A stretch of DNA of 64,000 bases from a virus (taxonomy: Duplodnaviria > Heunggongvirae > Uroviricota > Caudoviricetes), in the IMG/VR virus record IMGVR_UViG_3300032291_003166. The stretch is one strand, 5' to 3'. A model generated the notes under the pieces. It did not search any database, was not told where the DNA came from, and saw only the letters and a list, made by a program, of their open reading frames with translations. Position numbers and translations under genes: made by a program. Positions 12,921-50,314 of this stretch are shown here, in pieces (positions within the stretch are counted from its first letter, which is position 1; each line of letters begins with the position of its first letter).

Positions 12921-14102
12921 TTACTTAGTAATATATTTAACTAAATCTTTGTTTAACATCATCAATTTAAATTTACCTGGATTGCTATTGTAAATTGATT
13001 TTACCATATTATAACTAACATCAGTTGCAAATACTTTTTCGGTAATAATTTTGGTAATTCTTTCAATAATTGGTTTTTCAACTTGATTTTCTTTAGAATA
13101 ATATTCTAAGTAGTTACTAATCCTAGTACCTAATGTTGCTGCAATATCAGCTCTATAATCTTTATCTTTACCAACTAAACCTTTTAAAGTATTCATTACA
13201 TACTTCTCATCTTGGTTAATAATATTTTCTGGTGAGATCATCTTGTCCAATTTGTTATTAATGAACATTGTAAACAACGTACTAAACTCACTACCAACTG
13301 AACCCTCACCAATCATCTGAATTAACGGTAACGATTCTTCAAAGTTTTTAACGGATGATATGGAGTTAAAAAACATACTAACACTTCTACTATTAACTTG
13401 TTTAGTTACTAATTCTGGATGCATCAGCATAAAGTTAATACATCTACCATCTAATTGATTCTCTTCAGCCCATTTACCCCAGCATTTCAAATCAAATTTT
13501 AAGTTAACACTAATAAATCGTGTTTTCTGAGCGTTGTCAATACTATTAACTAAATAATCACCGTTATCAGGATTAGCAGTTAAAATAATATGCCAATCTT
13601 TAGGTAATGTCCAACTAATATATTGTTGTCTATCTACTAACTCCATTACAGCTTGAATGAATCTCATATCAGCTCTATTCCAATCATCTAATAATAGAAT
13701 ACCACCTTTTTCTTTACCACTAATCCATTCAGGTGGGCAGTAACTCATACGATTTAAACCAGTTGAACTAAAACCTTTCTTTCTATAATCCTCAACTGAA
13801 TTCTCATCCACCCATTCTTTACTATCTTCTGATTGCATCTCAAATTGGCGAATTGGAAAACCAACCAAGTCACCAATTTCTTCAATTTGTGCAAGATTCA
13901 ATTTAACAAAATTCAAATCTAATTCATCAGCTAACTGAACAATCGAAGATGTTTTACCAATACCACTATCACCTACTACTTCAGTTGATACCATTGGTTT
14001 ATTGTTTTCTTGTAAGTAACGGTTGTTACTAATAATGTGTTTTAAAAAGTCTTTTAATTCATTAACATTTAATGATACTGTTGCGTTTGATTTTTTAGCC
14101 AT
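12921..14102 (-). CDS. MoxR-like AAA+ ATPase (AAA_5 type)
   Basis: Walker A GDSGIGKTS, Walker B ILLLDDWNRAD, sensor ILTANP. Confidence 0.65.
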   Translation of the reverse strand: MAKKSNATVSLNVNELKDFLKHIISNNRYLQENNKPMVSTEVVGDSGIGKTSSIVQLADELDLNFVKLNLAQIEEIGDLVGFPIRQFEMQSEDSKEWVDENSVEDYRKKGFSSTGLNRMSYCPPEWISGKEKGGILLLDDWNRADMRFIQAVMELVDRQQYISWTLPKDWHIILTANPDNGDYLVNSIDNAQKTRFISVNLKFDLKCWGKWAEENQLDGRCINFMLMHPELVTKQVNSRSVSMFFNSISSVKNFEESLPLIQMIGEGSVGSEFSTLFTMFINNKLDKMISPENIINQDEKYVMNTLKGLVGKDKDYRADIAATLGTRISNYLEYYSKENQVEKPIIERITKIITEKVFATDVSYNMVKSIYNSNPGKFKLMMLNKDLVKYITK

Positions 14103-14139
14103 AACCTTTTTTTTTATTTTTTAAATTGTTTCTTATTTC

Positions 14140-14176
14140 TTCTTATATAATAAAGATAAGTAATTAGTCGAGGTCA
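14140..14176 (-). promoter_or_regulatory. conserved promoter-like element, variant B (TTCTTATATAATAAAGATAAG-N11-GGTCA on +)
   Basis: About 35 nt upstream of the ATG of 12921-14102. One of at least 18 near-identical copies. Confidence 0.6.
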
Positions 14177-14186
14177 TAAAAACCCA

Positions 14187-14423
14187 CTATTTCATATTTG
14201 TTGCTCTAGCAAATAATGAATCAAATATAAGATGATGATATTTGTATCCATGTTTCTTTGTTAACGCTCCATATAATTTTGGAATATTAATTTGTGTTTC
14301 TTTATCATACTCATCACCTAATTGAATTACATTTAATGCAAAACGAATATCACTATCTAACTCACTATTAATATTTTTTTCTAATTCCTTATATAAATTA
14401 TTATCTATTTTTAAAGTTTCCAT
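14187..14423 (-). CDS. hypothetical protein
   Basis: 78 aa ORF. Confidence 0.45.
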   Translation of the reverse strand: METLKIDNNLYKELEKNINSELDSDIRFALNVIQLGDEYDKETQINIPKLYGALTKKHGYKYHHLIFDSLFARATNMK

Positions 14424-15664
14424 TATCTAGTAATTTGAATTTTAGCACCTGGTAAATCCTCATTTACTTTACAGTTAGCGCAATGTACCCATAATACTGG
14501 TTTAATTGGTTTTGTTTCAGGTACACAACTTTCACCATCTGTTAAATAAATTAAATTTTGATACTTATCTGAATGTTCTTGTAAATATTTCATTACTGGT
14601 TCAAAATCTGTACCACCTCTACCTGATACTTTAATATTATCTGTTTCACCTTTATATTCATAAACTCTACCAATTCTAGCATCACATTCTACAATTGTCA
14701 CTTCAGTACCTGTTTTCCATATATGATATATTTCACTAAAGAAATCCTTTAAATCATTATCAGAAACAGAACCTGATGTGTCAATAGCAACTAATGTATT
14801 TTTCTTTTGTTTAATTTTTAAGGCTGGATTACCATAAAAACGTTTATTTGGTTTACGTCTTGTTTTCTTAGTATAAACTTTAGAAGCCATACCATTAAAA
14901 CGTCTAAGATAAGCTTTCCAATCAATAACTGCTTCTTCTTTAATTCTAAGTTCGTTAATTAATCCTTGTAATTCACCTGGTATAGTACCTCTATTACGTT
15001 CAACTTGATCTGCTACTTCTCTCAACTGATGTTCAATTTGTTTTTCCATCAATTTCTTTTCAGCCTCATCCATGTTCTCAAATTGTTTCCAAAACTCATG
15101 AGAACCTTTAACTGTAACCTTAGTGCCATCACCTAAAGTAATCTCTTTAGCCTCACCACTTCCATTAGCCTCAGACATTGCCTCCATAAATTTAGCAAAA
15201 TCACCTTCTGGGTTATCTTGTTGTTCTTTTTGTAACAAATCATAATACTTTCTAGTACCTGCTTTTAAGGGTAAATTTAACTCTTTAAATGGTGATTGAT
15301 CAATTTCTAAACCATCCCATGTTTCGTCCTTATAATCGTCTTGAATGTATTGATTAATTTCAATATCGGCAGCTACGTTTAATAATTGTTTATCTTGAAA
15401 ACTATCAAACATATGTAAGTGTTTAAATGCAATATGTAATAATTCATGTTTCAGAACTGCTACTTTACATTTCTCACCAATTGTATCCCAAAAAGCAGGA
15501 CTAACAACTAATTTAGTATTGATACCATCTTTAGCAACACATGCTGTTTGAACAGCATTACTAATTTCCTTATTTAAGCCAATCAAAAACAAACCATAAA
15601 ATGGTTCTTTAAACATTAATGTTTTAGCGTGTTTGGCAATGTCTGCGTGTAAATCGTCTATCAT
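14423..15664 (-). CDS. VWA-domain protein with N-terminal HExxH metallopeptidase-like domain (partner of MoxR ATPase)
   Basis: HELLHIAFKHLH motif N-terminally. MIDAS motif DTSGSVSD and a ...GRGGTDFEPV VWA core C-terminally. Confidence 0.65.
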   Translation of the reverse strand: MIDDLHADIAKHAKTLMFKEPFYGLFLIGLNKEISNAVQTACVAKDGINTKLVVSPAFWDTIGEKCKVAVLKHELLHIAFKHLHMFDSFQDKQLLNVAADIEINQYIQDDYKDETWDGLEIDQSPFKELNLPLKAGTRKYYDLLQKEQQDNPEGDFAKFMEAMSEANGSGEAKEITLGDGTKVTVKGSHEFWKQFENMDEAEKKLMEKQIEHQLREVADQVERNRGTIPGELQGLINELRIKEEAVIDWKAYLRRFNGMASKVYTKKTRRKPNKRFYGNPALKIKQKKNTLVAIDTSGSVSDNDLKDFFSEIYHIWKTGTEVTIVECDARIGRVYEYKGETDNIKVSGRGGTDFEPVMKYLQEHSDKYQNLIYLTDGESCVPETKPIKPVLWVHCANCKVNEDLPGAKIQITR

Positions 15665-17341: not shown

Positions 17342-17524
17342 TTAATCGTTTCTTTCAAATACTTGATCTAAATCATCATTATCAAATTTAACTTCTTTAA
17401 ATGATAATTTTGTTTTTAAATGATCAATATATTCGTCTTTTTGGTTTATAACGTGTACTAAATCTAATATTTCATCTATTAGTTTAGACTTGTCTTCTTT
17501 TAATTTTTTAATTGTTTCCATCAC
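17342..17524 (-). CDS. small hypothetical protein
   Basis: 60 aa ORF. Confidence 0.4.
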   Translation of the reverse strand: MMETIKKLKEDKSKLIDEILDLVHVINQKDEYIDHLKTKLSFKEVKFDNDDLDQVFERND

Positions 17525-18048
17525 ATTTTACTTAAACGTCCACTCCTGTAATAATATTTCTTCCAGTAAGGGTGCTCTAATGAAGCAATGTTTACACCTG
17601 ATTTACTTGATTGGATAAATTTATTATTACTTAAATAAACTCCAACATGACTTATATCTCTAGTTTTAATTCTGAAGAATACTAAATCTCCCGTTTTTAA
17701 TTCATCTCTAGAGATAGTTTTAACATACTTAAATTGCTGTCTTGAATTTCTAGGTAACCATTCATTTACTACTTTAGAATATAATTCTCTAGCAAATGCT
17801 GAACAGTCAATCCCGTTTTTTGATTCACCCCCAAACTTATAGGGCCGACCAATCCAATCAAATACAAAATCATACAATTTTAATGACATCGGGGTGTAGT
17901 CTAAAGCTATACCTGCGATTTGATTTAAGAACTTAATTTGAAGTTCCTTTTCTTCTTCTGGCTGTGAAGTCGCCGACTTGTTCTGTGCTAGTCCTAGACT
18001 AGGCAACAGAACGATCAAGGTAGTTATTATACATATTTTCATCATCAT
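17521..18048 (-). CDS. secreted NlpC/P60-family cell-wall peptidase
   Basis: Signal peptide MMMKICIITTLIVLLPSLGLAQN, catalytic Cys context DCSAFARELY and His context DISHVGVYL. Confidence 0.7.
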   Translation of the reverse strand: MMMKICIITTLIVLLPSLGLAQNKSATSQPEEEKELQIKFLNQIAGIALDYTPMSLKLYDFVFDWIGRPYKFGGESKNGIDCSAFARELYSKVVNEWLPRNSRQQFKYVKTISRDELKTGDLVFFRIKTRDISHVGVYLSNNKFIQSSKSGVNIASLEHPYWKKYYYRSGRLSKM

Positions 18049-18143: not shown

Positions 18144-19274
18144 CTAATGACTATCGCCGATATTGTTTTTTTCACCATATATCAAATAATCAGGATTGAT
18201 CACTTTAGCGATCTTACTACGTTCACCTGATATATGTTTAATCACAATTCCTTCTTCAGGTACTTTAGTTCCTGGAATAAAATTATTAAAAGTGAATTTA
18301 TCTTGTACTTCTTGATCCCATAAACCAGTATATAAAATATCTACATAAGGTAAGTTTAAAAAATAATTAAGAGCAATATGTGTATCACCAGTGTCCATAT
18401 AACCATTATCTAACTTAATATCAAATGCTTTAAATTCAATATCTGATAAACCATAATCATATCCTTTTTGAATACCAGGACCATAAATTTCTCCATAAAT
18501 TATTATCCCATCTCCAATATAGTTAGAACCTCTATCTTTAACATAAGACCATAATTTATTTTTAATATTATATTGTTCAGCAGCTGTTCTCCAAACATCA
18601 GTTGAATAAAAACCTTGTGAGTCAGATCCTTTTTCAACGTTATGAGAACCATAAACATATTCATAGTCAATCCATTCATCAGCTAATCTAATAAATTTCT
18701 TTAATTTATCTATAAAAGATAATTTAGTTTTCTTAACAATACCATAACGAGCATTAGTACCATGAATTTTACGAGTAATCTCTACAACATCATCTTCATT
18801 AAACATTCCGTCAACATTCTTTAAATTAGGAAATTTATAATAAACATGAAAGTGAGGATTATCTTGATATCTAATTTTACGTCCTGAAGCTAATTGAATT
18901 TGTTTAACTGGTGGTTCGTATTTGAATATATTCATTACACCCATCATATCTTTACCTTCTTTTATTTCTGAAGGAAATAATCCTGATTTTGATGTTGGAA
19001 TTAATAAGCATTCAGAATATACACCTCTTAATTTAACAGTACGTACACGTCCACCTTTACGTAAATAATTAGTCACATTTAATTCATCTGATAATTGTTC
19101 AGGGATAACAGCATCTGTGGTTGCTACTATTACTAAACTTCCCTCAACATATTGATCTTTAGGGATGATACAAGTCCATCCATTTACAACTGCTAATTCT
19201 ATTTTATCAGCACCTTCAATTGGTTTGATTTCTTTGATTTTGCCTATAAAGCAAACTGAGTTATTATTTTCCAT
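18144..19274 (-). CDS. RNA ligase (Rnl2-like nucleotidyltransferase)
   Basis: Motif I KIHGTN and motif IV EGIVIKH, a covalent nucleotidyltransferase ligase layout. Confidence 0.55.
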   Translation of the reverse strand: MENNNSVCFIGKIKEIKPIEGADKIELAVVNGWTCIIPKDQYVEGSLVIVATTDAVIPEQLSDELNVTNYLRKGGRVRTVKLRGVYSECLLIPTSKSGLFPSEIKEGKDMMGVMNIFKYEPPVKQIQLASGRKIRYQDNPHFHVYYKFPNLKNVDGMFNEDDVVEITRKIHGTNARYGIVKKTKLSFIDKLKKFIRLADEWIDYEYVYGSHNVEKGSDSQGFYSTDVWRTAAEQYNIKNKLWSYVKDRGSNYIGDGIIIYGEIYGPGIQKGYDYGLSDIEFKAFDIKLDNGYMDTGDTHIALNYFLNLPYVDILYTGLWDQEVQDKFTFNNFIPGTKVPEEGIVIKHISGERSKIAKVINPDYLIYGEKNNIGDSH

Positions 19275-19277
19275 ATT

Positions 19278-19877
19278 TTAATTTAAACTATTTGGGTAAT
19301 ATAATAATGTAGGATTTTTCTTCTGAATATCCACATCTGGGTAATATTTTTTAAACTCCATTACATCAAATTTAGAAGTTATTAAATGACATCCAACTTT
19401 AGTAGGAATTATAGTTTCAATTTTATTTCCTTCAGGTTTTAAACTATTAATCAAATTAATTATATGTTTTGGTCCTTCAATAAAGATATTATCCACATCT
19501 ACAATCCAACGTTTCTCAAGTGTTTTCATTTGTCCAACGATTGAATCAAATAGATTTTGTTGTTTATGTTGTCCACTTTTAATTCGTTGAGCCAGATCCA
19601 CTAACATATTTAAGGATACGTCTTTATGACTTTGTTTTTGAACGTGAATATATGCTCGTGCTTTAAACATTTCGCATAACTGAATAATTTCATCATAACG
19701 TTTTTCTAATTGTTCGATACTAGCAATACAATATGAACGTATAGTTCTTACTGATTGATGATTATCTTTTTCACCTTCAGGTTGATCCTTTTTACGTTTA
19801 AAAATGTAAAGCATATAGAAATCATCTTCATCCTCAAAGTTGAGTAATGGCTTTATTAATTCTAAATTGTCTATCAT
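19278..19877 (-). CDS. hypothetical protein in RNA-repair cassette
   Basis: 199 aa ORF between the ligase and kinase genes. Confidence 0.45.
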   Translation of the reverse strand: MIDNLELIKPLLNFEDEDDFYMLYIFKRKKDQPEGEKDNHQSVRTIRSYCIASIEQLEKRYDEIIQLCEMFKARAYIHVQKQSHKDVSLNMLVDLAQRIKSGQHKQQNLFDSIVGQMKTLEKRWIVDVDNIFIEGPKHIINLINSLKPEGNKIETIIPTKVGCHLITSKFDVMEFKKYYPDVDIQKKNPTLLYYPNSLN

Positions 19878-20257
19878 AACTTTATATTGAATCGATTTTT
19901 CATTTTAATTAAGGTTTCATCTGGTACATTATGTTGGTTTATACCACCATGTCTGTTCTCTACAATTAATGAATGTACTCTATAACCATACTTCTCAGCC
20001 ATCTCAAAATAAGGCTTCATTTCTCTCTCAGTTGTAAACGTATTTGATACAATTACTCTTTCAAAGTCATTTCTCATATATGAATCAACTATACTTTGAC
20101 ACCAAAGGTGTGCATCTTTTAATTTAGAAGCATCAAATTTATATTCATCATCTTCCATAAAATATTGATCAGCTTCAGCTGTTATTCTACCTATTGATTT
20201 TGCTAATGTTGATTTACCACTACCCGGTAATCCTCTTAATAATATTAATTCTTTCAT
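19874..20257 (-). CDS. P-loop kinase, polynucleotide 5'-kinase-like
   Basis: MKELILLRGLPGSGKSTLAKS Walker A at the N-terminus. Size and context resemble the T4 Pnk kinase domain. Confidence 0.5.
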   Translation of the reverse strand: MKELILLRGLPGSGKSTLAKSIGRITAEADQYFMEDDEYKFDASKLKDAHLWCQSIVDSYMRNDFERVIVSNTFTTEREMKPYFEMAEKYGYRVHSLIVENRHGGINQHNVPDETLIKMKNRFNIKL

Positions 20258-20697
20258 ACAGTATGTTCTATTTGTACTCTAACACAGTTTTGAGGTAATC
20301 TATTTATATGTCTGTAATTATTAATATAACCCATAATATTAGCACTACCAATTGCATTTGCTGAATGTGTATAAACATCAACAACTGGTTTTCCTTCCAT
20401 CCATTGTTCTACTAACCATTTAGCACAATCATATCCTGTCTTCTCAGTAATATTATTATAATTTAATTCGTAGTTATGATATACATTTTTATGCCATTCA
20501 GCCATAGCACTATCTCCTAAATCATGGTCTAATGAAATAACATCAATATTTTCTAAACCAACCTCATTTACTTTGGCTACAAACTCATCATAATTTCTTA
20601 CAACAGTCCATTCTTCAATCCCATGAATCCATTCATTATTTGGACTTAATGGTGTGCGTACATCATCTAAATAAATTCTATATCTAGTATTTCCCAT
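20254..20697 (-). CDS. hypothetical protein in RNA-repair cassette
   Basis: 147 aa ORF. Confidence 0.45.
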   Translation of the reverse strand: MGNTRYRIYLDDVRTPLSPNNEWIHGIEEWTVVRNYDEFVAKVNEVGLENIDVISLDHDLGDSAMAEWHKNVYHNYELNYNNITEKTGYDCAKWLVEQWMEGKPVVDVYTHSANAIGSANIMGYINNYRHINRLPQNCVRVQIEHTV

Positions 20698-20698
20698 A

Positions 20699-21367
20699 TT
20701 ATTGTTCTCCTTTTAATCTTTCTTCGTGGTGGTCGGAAGGTAATATATTTGCTTTAATAGGCCTAGTTTTTAGTAAACTAATTACTTCCTCCATTGAGTA
20801 AGGTGTTAAAGCATTTCCATCCATCCCTACATCCATTGATCTTCCACTCATTATTTTCTTATTTTTAGGTAAATGAACATGACCAAATAAATGATATCTT
20901 CCATTATTCATATCATGCCAACTACATAGTGGATAATGATCAACTACAAACTCAACTTTATTTTCACCTTTATGGTTATACACAGTTAAGACTTCATATT
21001 GGAAAGTTTGAGTAAAAATATCTTGAATATTTTGTCTATTATTCTGGATATGATGATCATGGTTTCCATAAGCTAGATAAATGTTACGACAAATTATTCT
21101 ATCTCTAAATTCTTTAATTGATTCAAAACCCCCAAATGACCAGTCACCTAAGTGAATTAAGATATCATCCTGCATAACAAGTCTATTGATGTTATCAACA
21201 ATGGCATCATTCATATGTTCTAATGTTTGAAAATCTCTTGTTTGGTCAACAGGAATTTCTCCATCTTGAGTTCTCCAATTAGTAACTCCTCTACAAATGT
21301 TTTTGTGATTATAATGTGTGTCTGAAGTAAAGAATAGCTTTTGGCCTTTTTCTAATTTTATTTTCAT
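20699..21367 (-). CDS. calcineurin-like metallophosphoesterase (candidate 2',3'-phosphatase of RNA repair)
   Basis: DxH (SDTHYNH), GD (HLGDW) and GNHD (YGNHDHH) motifs. Confidence 0.6.
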   Translation of the reverse strand: MKIKLEKGQKLFFTSDTHYNHKNICRGVTNWRTQDGEIPVDQTRDFQTLEHMNDAIVDNINRLVMQDDILIHLGDWSFGGFESIKEFRDRIICRNIYLAYGNHDHHIQNNRQNIQDIFTQTFQYEVLTVYNHKGENKVEFVVDHYPLCSWHDMNNGRYHLFGHVHLPKNKKIMSGRSMDVGMDGNALTPYSMEEVISLLKTRPIKANILPSDHHEERLKGEQ

Positions 21368-22339: not shown

Positions 22340-22352
22340 ATTAATTCTTTAG

Positions 22353-22426
22353 TGGACCCTGCTGGGCTCGAACCAGCGACCCACAGATTATGAGTCTGTT
22401 GCTCTAACCAACTGAGCTAAGGGTCC
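22353..22426 (-). tRNA. tRNA-Met (anticodon CAT)
   Basis: Minus-strand sequence GGACCCTTAGCTCAGTTGGTTAGAGCAACAGACTCATAATCTGTGGGTCGCTGGTTCGAGCCCAGCAGGGTCCA folds as a perfect cloverleaf: 7-bp acceptor GGACCCT/AGGGTCC, D-arm GCTC..GAGC, anticodon loop CTCATAA, T-arm GCTGG-TTCGAGC-CCAGC. Confidence 0.9.
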
Positions 22427-37505: not shown

Positions 37506-37541
37506 TTAATATAATTAAATATATGTAACTGATTGGGGTCA
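37506..37541 (-). promoter_or_regulatory. promoter-like element, variant A
   Basis: Upstream of 37068-37493. Confidence 0.6.
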
Positions 37542-38243
37542 ACTATGTTTCCATATATACCCATGAGCTGTTTTTTGCTTTCCACTACAACATGATGATA
37601 TATCTCCACTGTTGATTCCTAATTCTTTAGATGCTGTTTTTAAGGAAGGCCAATGTTTTATTACATTCATATTTAAATCGTATTGTATTATTGGTTTTAA
37701 TCCTTTATCTATTTTATTTTCACTTATTTTTAAGACGTGTTCTTTAGATAATGTTTTACCTGACTTAGATAAACTTTGTTTTTTCTTCCATTCATCATTT
37801 CTAACCACCCCATAATTACCATGTTCATTTCCTTTCTTAGTAATATTATATTTTTGGCCTTTTTTTCTTATTCTAATTTTTTCTTTAGAATCATCGGAGT
37901 ATTTAGTTCCTAAATTATAATTATTACCTTTTTTAGATTGAGATATTTTATTTTTAGTTAAATCTGAGTGTTTGTCAGGGCCATTTCCTCCACTATTTTT
38001 ATTATAAAGAGCATAACCTAAATTTTCATAATATTTAATCCATTTTATTTCTAATGGTTTCCAATCAATCGACATAATAGAATCAACCTCTTCAATAACT
38101 TCAAATTTAATATCATTTCCAAATCTACGTTTATGATGATATTTTCTATGAGATATATTTAATGTTTTTCCAATATACACTGTTTTAGGATCATTATTGA
38201 TATTTGAAATTAAATAAATGTATGTCATGATTGTTATTTTCAA
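37539..38243 (-). CDS. GIY-YIG homing endonuclease (I-TevI-like, with NUMOD3 repeats and C-terminal HTH)
   Basis: YIYLISN...VYIGKT GIY-YIG core, followed by repeated K/S-rich NUMOD3-like units (SQSKKG, SKEKIRIRKKG, SKSGKT). Confidence 0.7.
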   Translation of the reverse strand: MKITIMTYIYLISNINNDPKTVYIGKTLNISHRKYHHKRRFGNDIKFEVIEEVDSIMSIDWKPLEIKWIKYYENLGYALYNKNSGGNGPDKHSDLTKNKISQSKKGNNYNLGTKYSDDSKEKIRIRKKGQKYNITKKGNEHGNYGVVRNDEWKKKQSLSKSGKTLSKEHVLKISENKIDKGLKPIIQYDLNMNVIKHWPSLKTASKELGINSGDISSCCSGKQKTAHGYIWKHS

Positions 38244-38277
38244 TAAATATATAAATTCCTACATTCCTGTCAAGAAT

Positions 38278-39354
38278 TTACTCATAACTATCTCTATCAA
38301 TATTGATCACCTTAGGAAAGCGAGGAACTTTATCTTCTGTTAATTCGAAATATTTGACAGTTGCTTTCTTCCCAATTAATTCATCTCTTTGATTCCATAA
38401 TTCAGTTAAATATTCCCAGGTTCCATTAACAGCAGAATCAAATGGTTTACCATTAATATTAAATTTAAGTTTACCAATTTTTGAACTTAAATTACCTTTT
38501 CCTTCTTCATAACCTAATATTTTAAATTCAGCATCATTAAATGTTTTATATTTTAATAATGATTTAGAACGTTTGTTTTCATAATTTGAATCCGTTCTTA
38601 ATATTTGTCCTTCATATCCGTCAGCCATATAATCAAAATAATAAGCTGATATATCATTCTCATTATCTACTTGTTCTGTTTTAACAACCTGGCATGTTGT
38701 AGGTAAAGATAAACTATTTAATACTCTAAAACGATCAACAAATGTCTTATCAACACTTGGTATATCATAGATATGATATTCAATACACTCAGCACTTAAT
38801 ATTAAATCTTCTGATGTTGGTTTTGTTTTACGAACACATGATATAATTTTATTAAAATCAGCTACATCCTTACTAGCATATAATTCTCCATCTAATATTA
38901 AATCTGGATTTGATTTAAGTAATGGTTTTAGTGATTCAAATATATGAGGTGCAGATATAATTCGTTTACCATTACGTGTCCACATACCATCTTCTTTAAC
39001 AATACATCTAATACCATCTAATTTAGGTTGAGTAAAGATTGGATATTTAATTTTATGTTTATAATCATTATAATCATGAGCTAACATTGGTTTAAAATAA
39101 ACTGGTGTGTCTATTTTATTTATATCTTCCCAATATCCTAACTCAGTACGTTTACGAAACATTGCGTCTGCTTCTCTAACTGCTTGTTCATTAGATGAAT
39201 TATATGATTTGCCTTCGCAACATGTCCATTCTGAAGTAACTTTTTGACCATCTTCAAAACCACTAATTGTTCTGAAGCAATTATCTTTTACTTCAATTCT
39301 CCATGTTGATACTTTACCTGTAACTGATCGCTTATATAAAATTGGATAACTCAT
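38278..39354 (-). CDS. ATP-dependent DNA ligase (T7-like)
   Basis: Motif I KLDGIR and a T7-ligase-like N-terminus. Confidence 0.75.
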   Translation of the reverse strand: MSYPILYKRSVTGKVSTWRIEVKDNCFRTISGFEDGQKVTSEWTCCEGKSYNSSNEQAVREADAMFRKRTELGYWEDINKIDTPVYFKPMLAHDYNDYKHKIKYPIFTQPKLDGIRCIVKEDGMWTRNGKRIISAPHIFESLKPLLKSNPDLILDGELYASKDVADFNKIISCVRKTKPTSEDLILSAECIEYHIYDIPSVDKTFVDRFRVLNSLSLPTTCQVVKTEQVDNENDISAYYFDYMADGYEGQILRTDSNYENKRSKSLLKYKTFNDAEFKILGYEEGKGNLSSKIGKLKFNINGKPFDSAVNGTWEYLTELWNQRDELIGKKATVKYFELTEDKVPRFPKVINIDRDSYE

Positions 39355-40839: not shown

Positions 40840-42024
40840 TTATTTACTATAAATATGAACTAGATTCTGTTCATAAGTATTCATAGCATTAATTTTAATT
40901 TTGAATATATCTAATTCAAATTCTCCTATTTCACCTGATTCAGCTATGATTTCTGGTAGTTGAGTTAATATATTAAATGCATCTTGGTTTAAGTATTGAG
41001 CGTCAAATTCTACTATAATATCTTCTTTAGGGGTATTATATTTTGTTACTTTAATTTTAGATTTTAAATCAACTTTAGTATGAGGTTGTTCATTTTCATA
41101 ATAAGCTGCTTCTAATACTCCCATTTCATCATCAAGGTATATTGTATCACACCATGGTTCTAGAGTTGCTAACATATTTAAATTACAAGTACTAACTACA
41201 AATGCAATATTATATTTGGGAGGTATAATTGGTTTCATAAATGAATCATGTTTTACAAAATGTCCCCACTTACGAATAAAATTTCTAGCATTTTTACTTG
41301 TTGTATGTAACCACTCCTCACTATTCTTACCAGCACTACCTCCAGCATGTTTATTAAATCTACTACCTCGGCTAGTAAAATGATACACTAAAGCATCCCA
41401 TGATTGAATTACTTTATATCCTTTTAATATAAAACGATTAAATAAATCACTATCCTCTTTAGACTGTGGAGCAAATAATTCATCATGTCCTCCAATAGCT
41501 AAAAAATCATCTTTATACATACACCATGGTGCAAATATACCTTCAGTTACTTTATCTTTATTTAATACTTCATTTTGTGAAGACCATTCATACCAATTAT
41601 CTTTAAACTCATCAGCTTCAATCCCAAAGTCCATAGTTATTTTTTCTGGTCCTGAAGGATGTAATGGTGGTTCAACCCTAGTAGCACTTACTACTATACC
41701 TGGTTTTAGATGTTTTAAAATATTACTATCTAAATTAGGTGAAGCAACCATATCAGCATGAAAAGCAAATATAATATCTGTTCGAGCCATTTCAATCCCT
41801 TTATCAAACATTCCTACTATACCAATACGTTCTGGGCCTGGATTGTGATATGTTATTAAATCGTTGTCATCTAGTTGTTTAATCCAATCTTGTGTGCCGT
41901 CTACACTCGCGTCATCTAAAACTAATATTTCATGTTTAGTTTTTAAATTACGAATTGATTTATAAGCTAATTGTAAAAATTCTAAATTGTTTCTACTTGG
42001 TAATACAAATGTTATTTTTTGCAT
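40840..42024 (-). CDS. family-2 glycosyltransferase
   Basis: VLPSRN...LVLDDASVDGT, a GT-A DxD signature. Confidence 0.65.
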   Translation of the reverse strand: MQKITFVLPSRNNLEFLQLAYKSIRNLKTKHEILVLDDASVDGTQDWIKQLDDNDLITYHNPGPERIGIVGMFDKGIEMARTDIIFAFHADMVASPNLDSNILKHLKPGIVVSATRVEPPLHPSGPEKITMDFGIEADEFKDNWYEWSSQNEVLNKDKVTEGIFAPWCMYKDDFLAIGGHDELFAPQSKEDSDLFNRFILKGYKVIQSWDALVYHFTSRGSRFNKHAGGSAGKNSEEWLHTTSKNARNFIRKWGHFVKHDSFMKPIIPPKYNIAFVVSTCNLNMLATLEPWCDTIYLDDEMGVLEAAYYENEQPHTKVDLKSKIKVTKYNTPKEDIIVEFDAQYLNQDAFNILTQLPEIIAESGEIGEFELDIFKIKINAMNTYEQNLVHIYSK

Positions 42025-42857
42025 AAATAATTTTTAATATAATCTTCTATATTTAATTTTGGATCCCATCCTAATAATTCTTTAGCTGATGTATCATCAC
42101 ATAATGTGATAAGTGCTTCTCCTGGTTTGTCATCTTTATATATAATTTCTTTACCAAACATATCAGCTATGTCTTTAATAGAATAATTCCATCCTCTACC
42201 TAGTTCGAATATATGTCCCCATTTCTGCTTCTCCAAAATTAAAGTTAAAGCATCTACAATATCATCAACATGAGTAAAATCTCTACGTTTTGTACCATCA
42301 CCATATATTGTTAATGGTTTATTTTTTTCAATACATTTTTCCCAAGCACCGATTAAAGTAGTATAACCGCCTTCTTTTAAATGGTATGGACCATAAACAT
42401 TATAAAATCTAGCTATTGAAGCATTAAGGTTAAAATGTGTTTGATATAGATAAATTATTTCCTCACCTATATCTTTACTAAATGTATACGGATTTTTAAA
42501 TTTGCCTGAATGGTGAGATGAACTACCCGCGTATATTAATGGTATATTATTCTCTGAACAATATTTAGCTAATTTAAAAGTAGCATTAGCGTTAGTTGTA
42601 AAGTAACTATATGGATCTTCAAATGATGGTTGTATTCTAGCTATAGCTGCTAAATGATATATTACATCTGGTTTCCAGTATGAATAATCATCTATATTTC
42701 TAATATCAAAATTAATATACTCTGCTCCATCCTGATGGTTTGATTTTAAACCAGTGTTGTAATTATCTAATGACACTACATCATAACCTTTACTTAATAA
42801 TTTTTTAATTAAATTAGTTCCTATAAAACCCGCTCCACCTGTAACTAATATTTTCAT
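42012..42857 (-). CDS. NAD-dependent nucleotide-sugar epimerase/dehydratase (SDR)
   Basis: MKILVTGGAGFIG Rossmann motif and YTFSK (YxxxK). Confidence 0.65.
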   Translation of the reverse strand: MKILVTGGAGFIGTNLIKKLLSKGYDVVSLDNYNTGLKSNHQDGAEYINFDIRNIDDYSYWKPDVIYHLAAIARIQPSFEDPYSYFTTNANATFKLAKYCSENNIPLIYAGSSSHHSGKFKNPYTFSKDIGEEIIYLYQTHFNLNASIARFYNVYGPYHLKEGGYTTLIGAWEKCIEKNKPLTIYGDGTKRRDFTHVDDIVDALTLILEKQKWGHIFELGRGWNYSIKDIADMFGKEIIYKDDKPGEALITLCDDTSAKELLGWDPKLNIEDYIKNYLCKK

Positions 42858-43741
42858 ATATATTGTTGAATTAAATCATTATAACGTTTAGCTGTTTGTT
42901 TTGGACTTAAATATTCTTTAATATTTTTCATATTATCTCTATAGTAGTTAATTTGATTCATATTCATTCCTCTAATCCAATCCATTTTATTTCTGAATTC
43001 ATCTTCATTATTGATATAAAATTCATAAGACTCACCTACTATATCTACTACTGATTCTTCTCTACTGGTTAATAATATTGATTCAAAACAAGATGCTACA
43101 GCTAATTTAGTACATGGTTTATAAAAATAATCTAATGTATTGTTTTCTCTAAAACTACTATGAATATTGTATTTAGTATGTTGATCATTACCATTTACTG
43201 TATTATCAAATACATCTACATATCCAATTAATTTATTTTTATCTAATTGGAATCCATTTAATCCTCCTATATAAGAAGCTATTTTAGTATTAGTAATATT
43301 TGGTGTTAGTAAATCTTCATTATCTATATCCCATTGGTGAGGAATAACAATATGTTTAACATTAATTAAATATTCTTCTGCTTTAATTTTAGAATATGAA
43401 TTAGTATGTATGATAACATCTAAATAGCTATAATAATCAATTAAATCACTATTATAAAATATATTAGTATGATTAAAGCAAAAATTATCTATCACATCGT
43501 ATATTAAAACATTATTATTTTTACTTAATGTTTCTAACATTTGATGATTTACTATATGTAAAGGCTCACCTACAAAAACTATTATATAATTTTTAATATC
43601 ATTAATTGTTTTTAAAAATGTATCACGTAACACATAAGGTATTTTTATATCATTATATTTTTCTAATGCTTGTACTGTTTGTAAGCCTCTCATCTTACAA
43701 GCCCCAGATGTACTATGTCCTACAAAAACTACATTTCTCAT
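42854..43741 (-). CDS. hypothetical protein in glycosylation island
   Basis: 295 aa ORF. Confidence 0.45.
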   Translation of the reverse strand: MRNVVFVGHSTSGACKMRGLQTVQALEKYNDIKIPYVLRDTFLKTINDIKNYIIVFVGEPLHIVNHQMLETLSKNNNVLIYDVIDNFCFNHTNIFYNSDLIDYYSYLDVIIHTNSYSKIKAEEYLINVKHIVIPHQWDIDNEDLLTPNITNTKIASYIGGLNGFQLDKNKLIGYVDVFDNTVNGNDQHTKYNIHSSFRENNTLDYFYKPCTKLAVASCFESILLTSREESVVDIVGESYEFYINNEDEFRNKMDWIRGMNMNQINYYRDNMKNIKEYLSPKQTAKRYNDLIQQYI

Positions 43742-44415
43742 AACTCATTAAATAATTTATATTCTAATTCAAAATTATCTTTTAAATATAAAAGTATATT
43801 TTTAAAATTTAAATAATTTTCTTCAGTCCAATTATTTTTATTGTGTTCTCCCCATATATGAGATTGAAAATAAATAGTGTTATTAATTATAGTTACAGAT
43901 TCATCATTATGAATTGAACTTTCACCCTGAAATATTTTATTATTTACTTTTATATTATTATTAAGGTGAGTATGAATAGCTGTGTATTTAAATACTTCAC
44001 TAACTGCATCAAAACTACCTTGTGTTGCTAACCAACCTGGCATTCTCCATCCTGTAGGTATATGACCTGCTTGAGTCCATTCATTTAAACTATCTTGTAA
44101 TCTATCTTTAGCTTGATTATAATCTAATTCTATAAATTCACATTCCCTACAACCTGGATCTACAACTGTACGTTTATGATAATGACCATGTCCTGCTAAT
44201 TCAATCCAATCATATTGTAACCAATATTGTATCCAATCTTTATGTTGTGATAAAGGAAATTTATCATGATAATTTGAAGGTGTAAATAAAACAAATTTAC
44301 ATCCAAATTCTTTATTTAGTTCTTTTAAATATTCTACTGATTGATCACCTTCACATCCCCAATTTTGTTCTGGGTGAGTATCATCAATAGCAATTATTAT
44401 ATCTAATTTATTCAT
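43738..44415 (-). CDS. hypothetical protein in glycosylation island (His-cluster, possible hydrolase/deacetylase)
   Basis: 225 aa with HGHYH. Confidence 0.3.
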   Translation of the reverse strand: MNKLDIIIAIDDTHPEQNWGCEGDQSVEYLKELNKEFGCKFVLFTPSNYHDKFPLSQHKDWIQYWLQYDWIELAGHGHYHKRTVVDPGCRECEFIELDYNQAKDRLQDSLNEWTQAGHIPTGWRMPGWLATQGSFDAVSEVFKYTAIHTHLNNNIKVNNKIFQGESSIHNDESVTIINNTIYFQSHIWGEHNKNNWTEENYLNFKNILLYLKDNFELEYKLFNEL

Positions 44416-45362
44416 AGTGAATTAAAATAATTTTCCATTTTGATTAAGAATTGATTTTCACTAATTAAATTTCTATAATTACCTCTAGCATCAATAGAAC
44501 ATTCTTTATAGAACGATTCATTATTTTTTAATTCAATAGCTAATTTTCTAGCTGATTCTAAATCACCTAAACCAACACTTAATTTAGGATGTATTTTTCT
44601 TTGAGTATCAGCTTCATTATACCCAATACATGGTATACCTAAAAAACCACAGTTCATAGCAAATGTACCAGCTGCTATTGTAGGCATTAAGTGTATAGCA
44701 TATTTAAACTCTGCTAAAGCATAAATCCATTCATTCCATTGTAAATAAGGTAAATGAGTCACTAATTGTTCTTCATTTGGTTGTTTACGACCCATACTAG
44801 GACAATATATAGGTAAATCAAATTCAGTAGCAACAACATAACTATCAAAGCCACCATACCATCTAGTAAAATTACCTCCAACTATAACTTTATCTTGTTT
44901 TTCAATTAATCTAGCATTTAAAACACTATCCTCAACCATTAATGAAGGTATATCTTGAATTGGTATTTTAGGATTAATACCTTTAAAATAAGGTATATCA
45001 GTTTCATTTTCAGTTAATATACCATCTACATTAGTCAATAAATTATAATGCCATATTTGCTGATGTACTGGTAAGTCTTGATAAATCCAACTTGGACCTT
45101 CTTGCATAAATAACACTTTATCAGCTATTTTTCTTGCTTCAGTTACTACATCTATTTCATATAATTTATCTCTATCAACAGGAGTTTTAGGTATTAATAA
45201 AATTGCTATATCATATTTTGCTTTTACATTATTAATATTAAATAATGAATAATGATCAGCTTGTAAAGCACACATTTGAGCAAATTCTACTCTCATATTA
45301 TTATGAGTTCTAGGTACTTTGCTAGTGAAATCCATTTGGGATAAAAAAATAATTTTTTTCAT
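44412..45362 (-). CDS. hypothetical protein in glycosylation island (possible GT-B-like)
   Basis: 316 aa ORF. Confidence 0.35.
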   Translation of the reverse strand: MKKIIFLSQMDFTSKVPRTHNNMRVEFAQMCALQADHYSLFNINNVKAKYDIAILLIPKTPVDRDKLYEIDVVTEARKIADKVLFMQEGPSWIYQDLPVHQQIWHYNLLTNVDGILTENETDIPYFKGINPKIPIQDIPSLMVEDSVLNARLIEKQDKVIVGGNFTRWYGGFDSYVVATEFDLPIYCPSMGRKQPNEEQLVTHLPYLQWNEWIYALAEFKYAIHLMPTIAAGTFAMNCGFLGIPCIGYNEADTQRKIHPKLSVGLGDLESARKLAIELKNNESFYKECSIDARGNYRNLISENQFLIKMENYFNSL

Positions 45363-45991
45363 TTTATTTCATTTAAGGGCATTTTATTACTATCATCTAA
45401 AGTTAATAATAATTTATCATTATCGTTGATTTGAGGATGCCATTCTTTAAAAGATAATTTTAATTCTTCTAATTTTTCAAATATAGCATCTTGTTTATAA
45501 CCTAAATATTTTATAATATATTCTCTAGGAAATTTATCTAAATGCCACTCACCCCATAATTCATTAATATAACTTAAAATATTAGTTTGGGTTAAGTGAT
45601 ATAATACATCATACTCAGCTCCTTCAATATCTAATTTTAATATAATATAATCATCTGAGTTAAAGTTATTTTTTATAAATTCTGATAAATCTATTGATTT
45701 GACTTCATTATATAAATTTTGATCGATTTTTCTATCTGATTTTTCTAAATATAAAGTTGAAGCATCACTCCATTCAGTTGAAATATATATTTTAACTATA
45801 TCTTCTTTATCCCATACAGCATTATTATATAAATGAACTTTAGAATCATTACTCCATTTATCAATTAATTTATCATATAATATAGGTACAGCTTCAAAGG
45901 AATATATTTCAATATCAGAACCAAATTGTTTTTTAGCTCCAACTATTGATTGCCCTCTATTTGCTCCACAGTCTAAAAATATTTTTCTCAT
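45359..45991 (-). CDS. FkbM-family methyltransferase
   Basis: MRKIFLDCGANRGQS N-terminal motif typical of FkbM methyltransferases. Confidence 0.5.
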   Translation of the reverse strand: MRKIFLDCGANRGQSIVGAKKQFGSDIEIYSFEAVPILYDKLIDKWSNDSKVHLYNNAVWDKEDIVKIYISTEWSDASTLYLEKSDRKIDQNLYNEVKSIDLSEFIKNNFNSDDYIILKLDIEGAEYDVLYHLTQTNILSYINELWGEWHLDKFPREYIIKYLGYKQDAIFEKLEELKLSFKEWHPQINDNDKLLLTLDDSNKMPLNEIK

Positions 45992-47106
45992 ACTGATAAT
46001 ATACTATTATTTAACTCGATTGCCAAATCTATTGTTTGATCCATATTTAAGTATTTATAACTTCCCATTCGTCCTCCAAAATAAACATTAGATTCATTTT
46101 TAATTAAATCAAAATACTTACTATATATTACTTGATTTTTATCATCATTAACTGGGTAATATGATTCTTTACCTATACTCCAGTCATCAGGATATTCTTT
46201 AGTAATAACAGTAAATGGTTGAGTACCAAATTCAAAGTGTTTATGTTCTATAATTCTAGTAAATGAATATTTTTCTTCAGGGTAACTCATCATAAATGTA
46301 CCTTGATAATCAGGTATATTTAAACGTTCATGTTCAAAGATTAATGAACGATATTCTAAAGGACCAAATTGATAATTAAAATATCTATCTATAGGACCAG
46401 TATAAATTATTTTATCAGCTAATGAATTAAAATATTCTTTATTTTCTAGATAGTCTATATTTAATTTTACTTCTATATTTTTGCTTAAATTTTCAAATAG
46501 TAAAGTATAATTTGGAATGCCTTGATATGGATTATAATAATAACTATCTTCAAATGTTAATCTAAAGGTTTGACGTTTTAAAATATTAGCTGGGATGTCT
46601 TTAGGATCTTTATTCCATTGTTTTTTTAAATAACCCTCATAAAATATAGAATATAATTCAGGACCTACTAATTGTAGTCCCCATTCATAAGCGTTTTTAG
46701 GATCAGGATATAATTCTTTATAAGGTTTAGTTACTTCTTCAATTTTAGCTTTAGCCTCATCTGGAGTGAGCACACCATAAACTTGATGTAGTGTTAATAG
46801 ATTAATAGGAAATGAATATATTGTATCCTTATATCTTAATTTGGGTCTACATGAAAAATGATTTACTGTAGTATATTTTTGTATAAATTCCCAAATATGT
46901 TTTTTATCAGTATTAAAAATATGAGGACCATATTTATGTACTTTAATACTATCTACATCTTCTGTATAACAATTGCCACCAATATGATCTCGTTTATCTA
47001 TAATTAAACAAGTTTTACCAGCATCAGTTAATAAACGAGCATTTACTAAACCATATAGTCCTGCTCCAACTATTAAGTAATCGTATTTATTTTTTAAAGT
47101 ATTCAT
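45988..47106 (-). CDS. glf: UDP-galactopyranose mutase
   Basis: YDYLIVGAGLYGLV...IDKRDHIGGNCYTE FAD motif, and colinearity with bacterial Glf along the whole length (HKYGPHIF, YTGPIDRYF, GPLEYRSL, YPVND). Confidence 0.9.
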   Translation of the reverse strand: MNTLKNKYDYLIVGAGLYGLVNARLLTDAGKTCLIIDKRDHIGGNCYTEDVDSIKVHKYGPHIFNTDKKHIWEFIQKYTTVNHFSCRPKLRYKDTIYSFPINLLTLHQVYGVLTPDEAKAKIEEVTKPYKELYPDPKNAYEWGLQLVGPELYSIFYEGYLKKQWNKDPKDIPANILKRQTFRLTFEDSYYYNPYQGIPNYTLLFENLSKNIEVKLNIDYLENKEYFNSLADKIIYTGPIDRYFNYQFGPLEYRSLIFEHERLNIPDYQGTFMMSYPEEKYSFTRIIEHKHFEFGTQPFTVITKEYPDDWSIGKESYYPVNDDKNQVIYSKYFDLIKNESNVYFGGRMGSYKYLNMDQTIDLAIELNNSILSV

Positions 47107-47986
47107 CTAAGTATTCATGTAAACAAATTTTCCAAGTTCTCATATAATTTTTATCTAACTTATTTAAATTAGCATTAATTAATTTTTCTGAATATGGTCT
47201 TGGAGCGAAATATTCTTGTTTAAAATGATCACTTTCTACTTTATGGATTACAACATCTAGATTAAGATGTTCTTTAATTGCTACTGCTGTTTCATATCTA
47301 CTAGCCTCACCTTGACTTACCATATTATATAAACCATATGGTAAATTTTCATCTATATGTCTTATTATTGAGTAAGCAAAATCTTTAGTATAAGTAGGTA
47401 CTCCTAATTTATCATCTACAACATATAATTCTTTAGCACCCGCTTCAATTTGTTTCATTATTTTATTAACAAATTTCTTATCTTTATCTGGTCCACCACC
47501 CATCATCCAACCTGCTCTGAATATCCAATATTTTTCGTAATCTTGATTTTGTAATAATTGTTCTACATAATATTTACTCTTACCATAAGCACTTAATGGA
47601 TATGGTTTATCATCTTCAGTATAGAATTCTTTATCATTACCAAATATACCTGCTGTGCTAATGAATACATAAGGTACATTTAAATCTTTAGCTAAATTAA
47701 ATAAGTGAATTGCAGCAATTGTATTTGTTAAATAACAATCATCTTTTTCTTGTTCAGCATACTCTAAATCTACTATAGCAGCAAAATTTAAAATTATATC
47801 TGGTTTGAATTCATTTACTAGTTTAGATGTATGTTCTAAATCTCTTATATCACAATAAACAATATTGTTTGAATTTGATAAATCCTTATCTGTGAGTAAA
47901 TAATCTTCAGTATCAAACATACTCTGTAATGTGGTACCTAACATTCCGTTAGCACCTGCTATAAACATTTTATTATATGGTATCAT
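47087..47986 (-). CDS. NAD(P)-dependent sugar reductase/epimerase (RmlD-like)
   Basis: FIAGANGMLG Rossmann motif and YGKSK (YxxxK). Confidence 0.55.
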   Translation of the reverse strand: MIPYNKMFIAGANGMLGTTLQSMFDTEDYLLTDKDLSNSNNIVYCDIRDLEHTSKLVNEFKPDIILNFAAIVDLEYAEQEKDDCYLTNTIAAIHLFNLAKDLNVPYVFISTAGIFGNDKEFYTEDDKPYPLSAYGKSKYYVEQLLQNQDYEKYWIFRAGWMMGGGPDKDKKFVNKIMKQIEAGAKELYVVDDKLGVPTYTKDFAYSIIRHIDENLPYGLYNMVSQGEASRYETAVAIKEHLNLDVVIHKVESDHFKQEYFAPRPYSEKLINANLNKLDKNYMRTWKICLHEYLDEYFKK

Positions 47987-48590: not shown

Positions 48591-48595
48591 ATTTT

Positions 48596-50307: not shown

Positions 50308-50314
50308 AACTATA

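Follow-up and report, generated by a model that had tools for sequence, protein, structure and literature searches.

A probable split RNA end-healing and sealing operon with an interleaved primase-fold gene in an uncultured tailed phage

Introduction

To our knowledge, RNA repair by phages is known almost entirely from T4, in which polynucleotide kinase (Pnk) and RNA ligase 1 (Rnl1) act against the host nuclease PrrC. Here we examine a block of five genes in IMG/VR virus record IMGVR_UViG_3300032291_003166 (Caudoviricetes), analysed as a stretch of 64,000 nucleotides (nt) that is referred to throughout as the window. The block encodes a predicted ATP-dependent RNA ligase, a minimal P-loop kinase, a metallophosphoesterase, a cREC domain protein and a stand-alone protein that likely has the fold of the archaeo-eukaryotic primases (AEPs). 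We consider it probable, at moderate confidence, that these genes form a phage-encoded, split RNA end-healing and sealing operon. Systems like the core cassette are already known, and its presence in a large phage is to be expected; the AEP-fold gene is the only real novelty in the block.

Like T4, the window phage encodes a 5'-kinase, an enzyme for 3'-phosphate removal and an ATP-dependent RNA ligase, which in T4 are together able to restore breaks whose ends are a 2',3'-cyclic phosphate and a 5'-OH. The parts differ in several respects. T4 Pnk is a kinase fused to a HAD-type phosphatase, whereas the kinase in the window stands alone and is accompanied by a separate metallophosphoesterase and a cREC protein. 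In place of Rnl1 there is a predicted Rnl5-type ligase (N-terminal OB domain, nick-sealing family), with the AEP-fold gene interleaved, and whereas T4 counters PrrC, the window phage has no known cognate host nuclease. Bacterial Pnkp systems (Clostridium thermocellum Pnkp/Hen1; Pnkp1-Rnl-Hen1) combine the same three chemistries, and the 2',3'-phosphoesterase of CthPnkp is a lambda-phosphatase-like binuclear metallophosphoesterase (PMC3675462, PMC2190708). Pnkp is, however, a single kinase-phosphatase-ligase polypeptide, whose ligase is of the Rnl4 type and whose partner is the methyltransferase Hen1, whereas the window carries separate genes and a ligase of another family, and no Hen1 was recognised among the window open reading frames (ORFs) scanned. 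An earlier note on this DNA had likened the block to the complete toolkit of T4 and of bacterial Pnkp; the three activities can be assigned at the family level to separate genes, but the ligase is of the Rnl5 type and not T4 Rnl1-like.

A further point of comparison is provided by the cREC gene neighbourhoods of Iyer, Burroughs, Aravind and colleagues, in which cREC is already described beside phage RNA ligases and small P-loop kinases, sometimes with a calcineurin-like phosphoesterase (PMC7824862, PMC9503650). The domain was defined computationally as receiver-like, never beside histidine kinases, and linked to RNA ligases and NAD/ADP-ribose enzymes (PMC7824862, PMC9503650); it is predicted to resolve cyclic phosphates, and its members 'remain experimentally uncharacterized' (PMC9503650). 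Our literature search found no experimental work on cREC or on such a cassette. The published versions from proteobacterial phages are built around a sirtuin together with a T4-like tRNA ligase and the pyrophosphatase MazG, whereas the window has an Rnl5-type ligase and neither a sirtuin nor MazG among the ORFs scanned. An AEP-fold partner goes unmentioned in both cREC papers (PMC7824862, PMC9503650).

Results and discussion

Architecture of the block

The ORFs that the earlier note had delimited proved exact at both ends and lie on the minus strand (Table 1). Transcribed from the metallophosphoesterase towards the ligase, they are joined by a 1-nt spacer, two successive 4-nt overlaps and a 3-nt spacer, and the block is set off by spacers of 48 nt upstream and 95 nt downstream. 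No minus-strand terminator-like site was found inside the block by a promoter and terminator scan. Sigma-70-like promoter matches were not enriched (27 versus 35.7 ± 4.2 in shuffles), in a scan that misses Bacteroidota-type promoters. Co-oriented, joined at -4 to +3 nt and interrupted by no terminator-like site, the genes make up one operon-like unit, as had been proposed. With the exception of a few short shadow ORFs, all window ORFs of 100 or more amino acids (aa) are on the minus strand, and the G+C content of the DNA is 25-35%. A block of the same five genes is present on the independent metagenome contigs L002 (84 kb) and L003. We regard the five ORFs, in DNA of 26-31% G+C, as genuine genes and not chance ORFs, because the family matches are strong, homologues number in the thousands and the block recurs on independent contigs.

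Table 1 Genes of the five-gene block, in order of transcription, and other features of the window
Feature	Coordinates	Strand	Length	Assignment and remarks
Metallophosphoesterase	21367-20699	minus	222 aa	First gene transcribed; predicted 3'-end healing (2',3'-cyclic or 3'-phosphate removal)
cREC domain protein	20697-20254	minus	147 aa	Second gene; predicted cyclic-phosphate hydrolase
Minimal P-loop kinase	20257-19874	minus	127 aa	Third gene; predicted 5'-OH polynucleotide kinase
Stand-alone AEP-fold (primase-polymerase-like) protein, ORF2	19877-19278	minus	199 aa	Fourth gene; predicted nucleotidyltransferase
ATP-dependent RNA ligase, DraRnl/NgrRnl (Rnl5) architecture	19274-18144	minus	376 aa	Fifth gene
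AAA ATPase and DUF2201_N/DUF2201 protein	12921-15664	minus		ATPase read as MoxR-like; PHROG 1297 'ATPase', 1.1e-34
NlpC/P60 cell-wall peptidase	17521-18048	minus		PF00877, 6.8e-31; signal-peptide-like N-terminus; 95 nt downstream of ligase
tRNA gene	22352-22426	minus		Anticodon CAT
ATP-dependent DNA ligase	38278-39354	minus		PHROG 114, 1.4e-73; comes right after a NUMOD-type homing endonuclease (pair 37539-39354)
Sugar/polysaccharide run, 11 kb	40840-51760	minus		NAD-dependent epimerase/dehydratase, RmlD-like reductase, family-2 glycosyltransferases, FkbM methyltransferase, DUF2334, two large glycosyltransferases
Clamp-loader-like AAA protein	54602-55489	minus
DNA/RNA non-specific endonuclease	56357-56992	minus		9.8e-35
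Thymidylate synthase	57312-58313	minus
Second calcineurin-like phosphoesterase	60523-61227	minus

The host is probably an uncultured member of the Bacteroidota. The phage closest to the block region by megablast is a Flavobacterium phage, immuto, the sole match against phage genomes being its cREC gene (78%), and the GenBank phage records with a sequence-detectable homologue of the AEP-fold gene are mostly from phages with Bacteroidota hosts, 20 of the 25 being phages of Prevotella, Cellulophaga and Tenacibaculum. A search of genome contigs for this gene returned two contigs from metagenome-assembled genomes (MAGs) only, probably phage DNA, from which no host was assigned.

Ligase, kinase and end-healing enzymes

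The ligase consists of an N-terminal OB-like domain (PF21189, 4e-15, residues 10-94) and a nucleotidyltransferase domain (PF09414 RNA_ligase, 1.5e-14, residues 164-359 of 376), which leaves no room for a C-terminal domain. DraRnl of Deinococcus and NgrRnl of Naegleria share this arrangement of OB-like and nucleotidyltransferase domains with no C-terminal module, and residues 12-124 of the window protein align with residues 12-128 of NgrRnl (5cot; E 8.6e-13). The protein matches PHROG 968 'RNA ligase' (4.1e-55) and, over residues 10-364, positions 5-339 of the 341 in NCBIfam model TIGR02306 RNA_lig_DRB0094 (1.6e-25), with a score of 89.7 bits that lies under the equivalog cut-off of 151.15. On these matches it classifies as a divergent relative of DraRnl and NgrRnl (Rnl5), and neither as a DRB0094 equivalog nor as a T4 Rnl1-like enzyme. 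Motif I (K169-IHGTN), E341-GIVIK (341-346) and K354-IAK357 are present, and K169, G172, E262, E341, G342 and K357 are invariant in an alignment of seven family sequences. Motif I reads KLDG in NgrRnl as against KIHG here, which we take to be the form found in T4 Rnl2. The window also encodes a separate DNA ligase (Table 1), and the RNA ligase is therefore not the only ligase of the phage.

For the kinase, matches were obtained to Pfam AAA_33 (5.7e-12), PHROG 2071 (4.4e-42) and PHROG 505 'polynucleotide kinase' (2.9e-9). Its only match among solved structures, and a weak one, is 9d8a, RazKIN, a stand-alone RNA 5'-OH kinase of tRNA splicing (PMC11571804). Like the window protein, the Mucorales enzymes MciKIN and RazKIN are small monofunctional P-loop kinases with a separately encoded RNA ligase, but at 163-176 aa they are longer and the spacing of the invariant Asp from the P-loop differs (PMC11571804). 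The P-loop GxxGxGK[ST] (G9-LPGSGKS16) is invariant in 13 sequences, as are D30, N72, R102-H103 and H109-x-V-P. We predict a Pnk-like 5'-OH polynucleotide kinase, although a polynucleotide rather than a mononucleotide substrate is argued for by genomic context only. Polynucleotide kinases of this class accept both DNA and RNA (PMC11571804).

The metallophosphoesterase exceeds the curated Pfam cut-offs for Metallophos_2 (2.8e-6) and Metallophos (3.9e-5) and matches PHROG 547 'phosphoesterase' (1.2e-41); the closest solved chain, 1xm7 (aq_1665; E 0.0024), was deposited as a hypothetical protein. All binuclear-metal motifs occur in order (D16-x-H18, G74-D75, G101-N-H-D104, H144 and G162-H-V-H165) and are kept in 16-17 of 17 relatives. 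Its genomic context suggests that it acts on 2',3'-cyclic or 3'-phosphate RNA ends, as the corresponding domain of CthPnkp does. The ligase, kinase and metallophosphoesterase calls of the earlier note thus hold at the family level, with catalytic residues intact.

The same note had left the ORF at 20254-20697 uncharacterised, whereas it is a full-length match to PF20274 cREC_REC (model positions 2-88 of 88, E 6.4e-21, 75.3 bits versus a cut-off of 27) with homologues in 5,220 clusters. Its predicted model shows a receiver fold like that of CheY, in which the Asp pocket is preserved. From its family, the protein is predicted to hydrolyse 2',3'-cyclic (or 1''-2'' cyclic ADP-ribose) phosphates; since 2',3'-cyclic phosphates form only on ribose, the presence of such a partner points to RNA. 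The Flavobacterium phage immuto has a phosphoesterase and a cREC gene close together, with no ligase or kinase nearby. In this phage, a member of an unannotated 205-aa family (MEDFFE...; gp38, L001 5377-5994) adjoins cREC.

A stand-alone protein with a primase fold

The 199-aa protein belongs to PHROG 14949 ('unknown function') and to a large family, with 6,578 clusters at 90% identity and at least 1,649 at 50%, nearly all of them stand-alone proteins of about 200 aa. No Pfam family was found in any of 62 members; searches of NCBIfam, PADLOC and the PDB (phmmer and profile) gave chance-level hits only, and none of the described AEP families in Pfam (62 members), the PDB (profile) or NCBIfam was matched at the sequence level. 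The predicted model, in contrast to the sequence searches, is confident and shows the two-module AEP fold, the other fold-search matches covering one ferredoxin-like half only. Foldseek against viral predicted structures returned uncharacterised proteins only, including proteins of Campylobacter phages CP21 and F379.

Alignment of the family showed N4, K30 (in an R-K-K-D motif), R74, D127 and D129 to be invariant and W124, G162, H164 and F170 nearly so, although no part of the alignment was conserved well enough to serve as a query for related loci. The residues that correspond to motif I (DxD) are conserved in 62 of 62 members (D127 and D129, at the end of strand 124-129), and those of motif II (GxH) in 61 (G162) and 60 (H164) of 62, on strand 162-167. 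D183 and K186 are candidates for the Asp of motif III and the basic NTP-binding residue, respectively; the latter position is basic in 90% of members, and the window protein has both residues. The superfamily definition includes a His in motif II, or a Gln in some families (PMC5862659). The succession of W-x-V-D-x-D, G-x-H and then an acidic and a basic residue led us to read the protein as a minimal AEP-fold nucleotidyltransferase. Its membership of the AEP superfamily is likely, and it is predicted to catalyse nucleotidyl transfer. The cREC identity of one interleaved ORF and the AEP fold of the other, with its conserved catalytic motifs, make both look like enzymes, and the suggestion that they might be specificity or targeting factors was not borne out.

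Several features set the protein apart from known AEPs such as RSF1010 RepB', the phage S-2L PrimPol, PriS and the LigD polymerase domain. It is a stand-alone protein of about 200 aa with no helicase, PriCT or PriL, no AEP family of Pfam or the PDB matches its sequence, and its motif III lacks strict conservation. The loci seeded with the gene show it in the company of RNA-end enzymes, and not of replication genes, in about half of cases. Longer members of the family carry Cys-rich or unidentified extensions only, with no repair domain fused. Tpt1/KptA, 2H phosphoesterases and RNA cyclases were considered as identities for the protein and rejected, as its fold matches are to AEPs and there is a single H-x-x-T. 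An apparent fusion of the kinase and AEP genes in P0266 was likewise rejected, as the tail of P0266 matches nothing known.

Gene neighbourhoods of related loci

Three sets of loci illuminate the composition of the cassette. In 56 viral loci seeded with the ligase, each with at least 4 kb on both sides, the kinase was found in 53, usually directly upstream of the ligase, the phosphoesterase in 42, a second phosphoesterase family in 24, cREC in 19, the AEP gene in 15 and the Swiss-Army-Knife RNA-repair HAD phosphatase (HAD-SAK) in eight. The kinase and ligase, often with the phosphoesterase, are thus a near-constant core, to which cREC and the AEP gene are accessories. A near-invariant pairing of kinase and ligase is what a heal-and-seal pathway predicts. 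Seeding with cREC gave 56 loci, with an Rnl5-like ligase in 18, an Rnl1-like ligase in 16, the phosphoesterase in 23 and HAD-SAK in 16; no histidine kinase was recognised in these loci, though no systematic search was aimed at them.

The third set comprises 96 usable AEP-seeded loci from IMG/VR, GTDB and GenBank phages, two divergent seeds having given no confirmed loci. An initial tblastn count, by which the AEP gene stood 'alone' in 58 of 80 loci, was too insensitive and is superseded by scans with hidden Markov models. These place at least one of seven core RNA-end enzymes (phosphoesterase, kinase, cREC, Rnl5-like ligase, Rnl1-like ligase, CCA-adding enzyme and HAD-SAK) within 6 kb of the AEP gene in 53 of the 96 loci, nearly always co-oriented, and within 2 kb in 40. 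Gene order is fluid (35 distinct orders), and the ligase family around the AEP gene alternates between the Rnl5-like and the T4 Rnl1-like (PF09511) type. The swapping of ligase families and the shuffled gene order argue for a link of function rather than simple inheritance. Where it lies near a ligase, the AEP gene has a core repair gene as its immediate neighbour in 65% of cases, at a mean rank distance of 1.94, compared with 71% for the kinase, 66% for the ligase, 64% for HAD-SAK and 5% for thymidylate synthase (mean rank 7.68).

In six AEP loci (L085, which is MAG contig CALAZP010000171.1, and L039, L041, L012, L071 and L082), a T4 Rnl1-type ligase (PF09511, 5.7e-20) takes the place of the Rnl5-like enzyme, a non-orthologous displacement within a gene set that is otherwise similar. 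In L085, ligases of both types are present and flank the AEP gene.

The AEP gene also abuts a CCA-adding enzyme, in either order, across phages that share only about 39% identity. In Cellulophaga phage phi17:2 (L098, NC_021798.1, 7001-11404; 39% identity), for example, the AEP homologue gp033 directly precedes the tRNA nucleotidyltransferase gp032. The genes of phi17:2 that follow gp032 are gp031, annotated with a PARP catalytic domain (PF00644), the hypothetical gp030 and an ATP-dependent DNA ligase, gp029, an order that possibly connects NAD/ADP-ribose with tRNA-end processing. A protein of about 177 aa with an H...HD...D-like pattern lies between the CCA-adding and AEP genes of other loci (L011-L020, L030 and L061-L068). 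It has no Pfam match at E ≤ 0.001, so that 'HD' is a reading only; should the label hold, the CCA-adding enzyme and this protein would together correspond to the bacterial CCA enzyme, split in two.

Two further families recur in the ligase-seeded loci. The 205-aa family seen in immuto occurs in 23 of the 56 (L106-L185) and is directly beside a repair gene in 61% of cases, and a 120-aa family (MIAGAQPKVLL...) adjoins a repair gene in 56%. Neither was recognised near the cassette in the window; both may be further accessory components.

Proposed pathway

From the family memberships, intact motifs, close packing and recurrent neighbourhood described above, we infer the following substrates and reactions. 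An RNA, most plausibly a tRNA, would be cut by a metal-independent ribonuclease, leaving a 2',3'-cyclic phosphate and a 5'-OH. The cREC protein, the metallophosphoesterase or both would open and remove the cyclic phosphate to give a 3'-OH, and the 127-aa kinase would phosphorylate the 5'-OH. The Rnl5-type ligase, adenylylated on K169, would then join the 3'-OH to the 5'-PO4, best in a base-paired context as for NgrRnl. By analogy with T4 Pnk/Rnl1 and PrrC, such a system may counter a host anticodon nuclease.

The AEP gene is an optional accessory of this pathway, not part of its core, and its link to RNA-end processing is plausible but not established. By analogy with the polymerase domain of LigD, we suggest tentatively that the protein could extend or fill in RNA 3' ends in a template-directed manner before ligation or CCA addition. 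Fill-in of this kind would produce the nicked duplex favoured by an Rnl5 ligase, or an end suitable for a CCA-adding enzyme. A more specific version, which we think unlikely, is that of an RNA-repair polymerase for which the intact strand of a base-paired RNA, such as the 5' strand of the acceptor or anticodon stem in a tRNA, would template the replacement of 3'-side nucleotides removed by a host nuclease.

A number of observations weigh against the pathway as drawn. The break that Rnl5 ligases seal, as studied in NgrRnl, is a duplex nick with RNA as its 3'-OH strand, rather than one in a single-stranded loop (PMC4408790), and because of this preference the repair of anticodon loops by such a ligase is not a given. 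The invariant D30 of the kinase lies 15 residues past the P-loop Lys, compared with 20 in MciKIN (K16 and D36; PMC11571804); in the phmmer alignment, itself a weak match, it is the variable D36-D37 and not D30 that pairs with the 'DD' of RazKIN, and the match to RazKIN, the only solved relative, has an E-value of 0.008. The cREC protein and the metallophosphoesterase look redundant together. The activity of the former is a prediction, and the authors who defined the domain also considered cyclic phosphates derived from ADP-ribose. In the AEP family, the acidic residue of motif III is conserved in only 79% of members. Other observations bear on the place of the AEP gene and are weighed with the alternatives below.

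Alternative explanations

It is conceivable, if rather less than probable, that the repair system comprises four genes and that the AEP gene is a passenger in a shared region of auxiliary genes, serving DNA as a minimal primase or a repair primase-polymerase. Enzymes of this superfamily are chiefly DNA primases and primase-polymerases (PMC5862659), some members of the present family have Cys-rich, zinc-ribbon-like N-termini as many primases do, and no primase was found among 40 window ORFs scanned. The AEP gene accompanies the ligase in 13-15 of 56 loci (13 in a ranking of all clusters), no more often than thymidylate synthase (17 of 56), and its frequency alone therefore does not exceed what shared synteny would give. 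It is found in 0 of 56 cREC-seeded loci, and 34 of the 96 AEP-seeded loci have no tracked RNA-end family nearby, 43 lacking the seven core enzymes. In L091 and L094 it lies beside a protein that we read as ThyX-like, in L094 also about 1.8 kb downstream of a fragment read as a DNA polymerase, both readings being made without a family search. A protein read in the same way as nicotinamidase-like is also near it in these two loci, and the putative polymerase fragment is split by a homing endonuclease-like ORF. In the crAss-like phage cr116_1 the gene falls within a replication-gene region; this phage, however, already has a DnaG-type primase and a replicative helicase of its own, and the AEP protein, at about 200 aa and stand-alone, lacks the helicase, PriCT or large-subunit (PriL) partners of replicative AEPs. 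Gene arrangement also speaks against a passenger: the AEP ORF overlaps the kinase stop codon and ends 3 nt from the ligase start, near ligases the gene sits as tightly beside repair genes as these do beside one another, and it abuts the CCA-adding enzyme in both orders in phages about 39% identical.

Bacterial LigD unites a ligase, an AEP polymerase and a 3'-phosphoesterase, and its polymerase prefers rNTPs. The same composition in the window would be accounted for by a kit for breaks in DNA or RNA:DNA hybrids, in which DNA ends with a 5'-OH or a 3'-phosphate are cleaned by the kinase and the phosphoesterase, the AEP protein adds a short patch of ribonucleotides and sealing falls to the Rnl5-type ligase, which requires the 3'-OH strand of the nick to be RNA. 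This would give the AEP gene a natural role, and it fits the sealing by NgrRnl of nicks with an RNA 3'-OH, for which duplexes with as few as 2-3 ribonucleotides were tested (PMC4408790), as well as the acceptance of DNA by such polynucleotide kinases (PMC11571804). We nevertheless regard it as improbable. Ribose ends are indicated by the cREC protein, for which 2',3'-cyclic phosphates are the predicted substrates (PMC7824862), and the partners that occur in related loci work on RNA and tRNA (a CCA-adding enzyme, an Rnl1-type ligase and HAD-SAK). The AEP gene is missing from about three quarters of the ligase loci and is thus not obligatory for the ligase, the phage has a DNA ligase of its own, and no Ku-like partner was noticed, though no systematic search was made.

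Improbable, too, is the idea that some or all of the healing genes (cREC, phosphoesterase and kinase) process small nucleotides, quenching host immune signalling or recycling nucleotides. The candidate substrates would be derivatives of cyclic ADP-ribose, the 1''-2'' cyclic phosphate of ADP-ribose, and alarm signals that are cyclic nucleotides. The authors of the cREC papers proposed the first two as alternative substrates and called the neighbouring P-loop protein a 'nucleotide kinase' (PMC7824862, PMC9503650). Many loci, that of phage immuto among them, have cREC and no ligase, 11 of the 56 cREC-seeded loci have no tracked partner at all, and the polynucleotide specificity of the kinase comes from context. 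In the ligase loci, by contrast, the kinase is present in 53 of 56 and almost always directly upstream of the ligase; the partners of cREC are mostly two RNA ligase families and RNA-repair HAD phosphatases; and no NAD-utilising partner (Tpt1/KptA, sirtuin, Macro or Nudix) was found among a subset of 45 window ORFs that was scanned. RNA end healing and sealing is the reading that we retain as the most probable.

Other features of the window

A single tRNA gene with no encoded CCA lies about 1 kb upstream of the cassette (Table 1). The three G-C pairs that initiator tRNAs have in the anticodon stem are missing, and we take the tRNA to resemble E. coli tRNA-Ile2, which is lysidine-modified and reads AUA; with about 29% G+C, the phage would be well served by a tRNA for this codon. 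On the downstream side, the NlpC/P60 peptidase gene, a neighbour of the block also in L002, probably stands outside the repair block. For a phage, the 11-kb set of sugar and polysaccharide genes is of unusual size; it could modify the host surface, the phage DNA or the virion.

Implications for phage RNA repair

Abundant environmental phages, whose hosts are probably Bacteroidota, are the source of the cassette. If the pathway is as proposed, these phages would follow the same logic as T4 with other parts, combining a ligase of the Rnl5 type with a minimal kinase, a binuclear metallophosphoesterase and cREC, and we know of no phage in which any of these types of ligase, kinase, phosphoesterase or cREC protein has been characterised. 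The cassette would also offer a small system in which to test the cyclic-phosphodiesterase activity predicted for cREC. Should the AEP protein prove to be a minimal primase, it would be among the smallest stand-alone AEPs and would help to define the catalytic core. Should the family act at the ends of RNA, RNA repair would gain a polymerase step, and the primase superfamily a new function. An RNA-repair polymerase, were it to exist, would be the RNA counterpart of the LigD polymerase step and the 5'-to-3' mirror image of tRNA 5'-end repair by Thg1-like enzymes. Nucleases of the RloC type excise a nucleotide, and such a polymerase would explain how phages may beat nucleases that remove a nucleotide and do not just cut.

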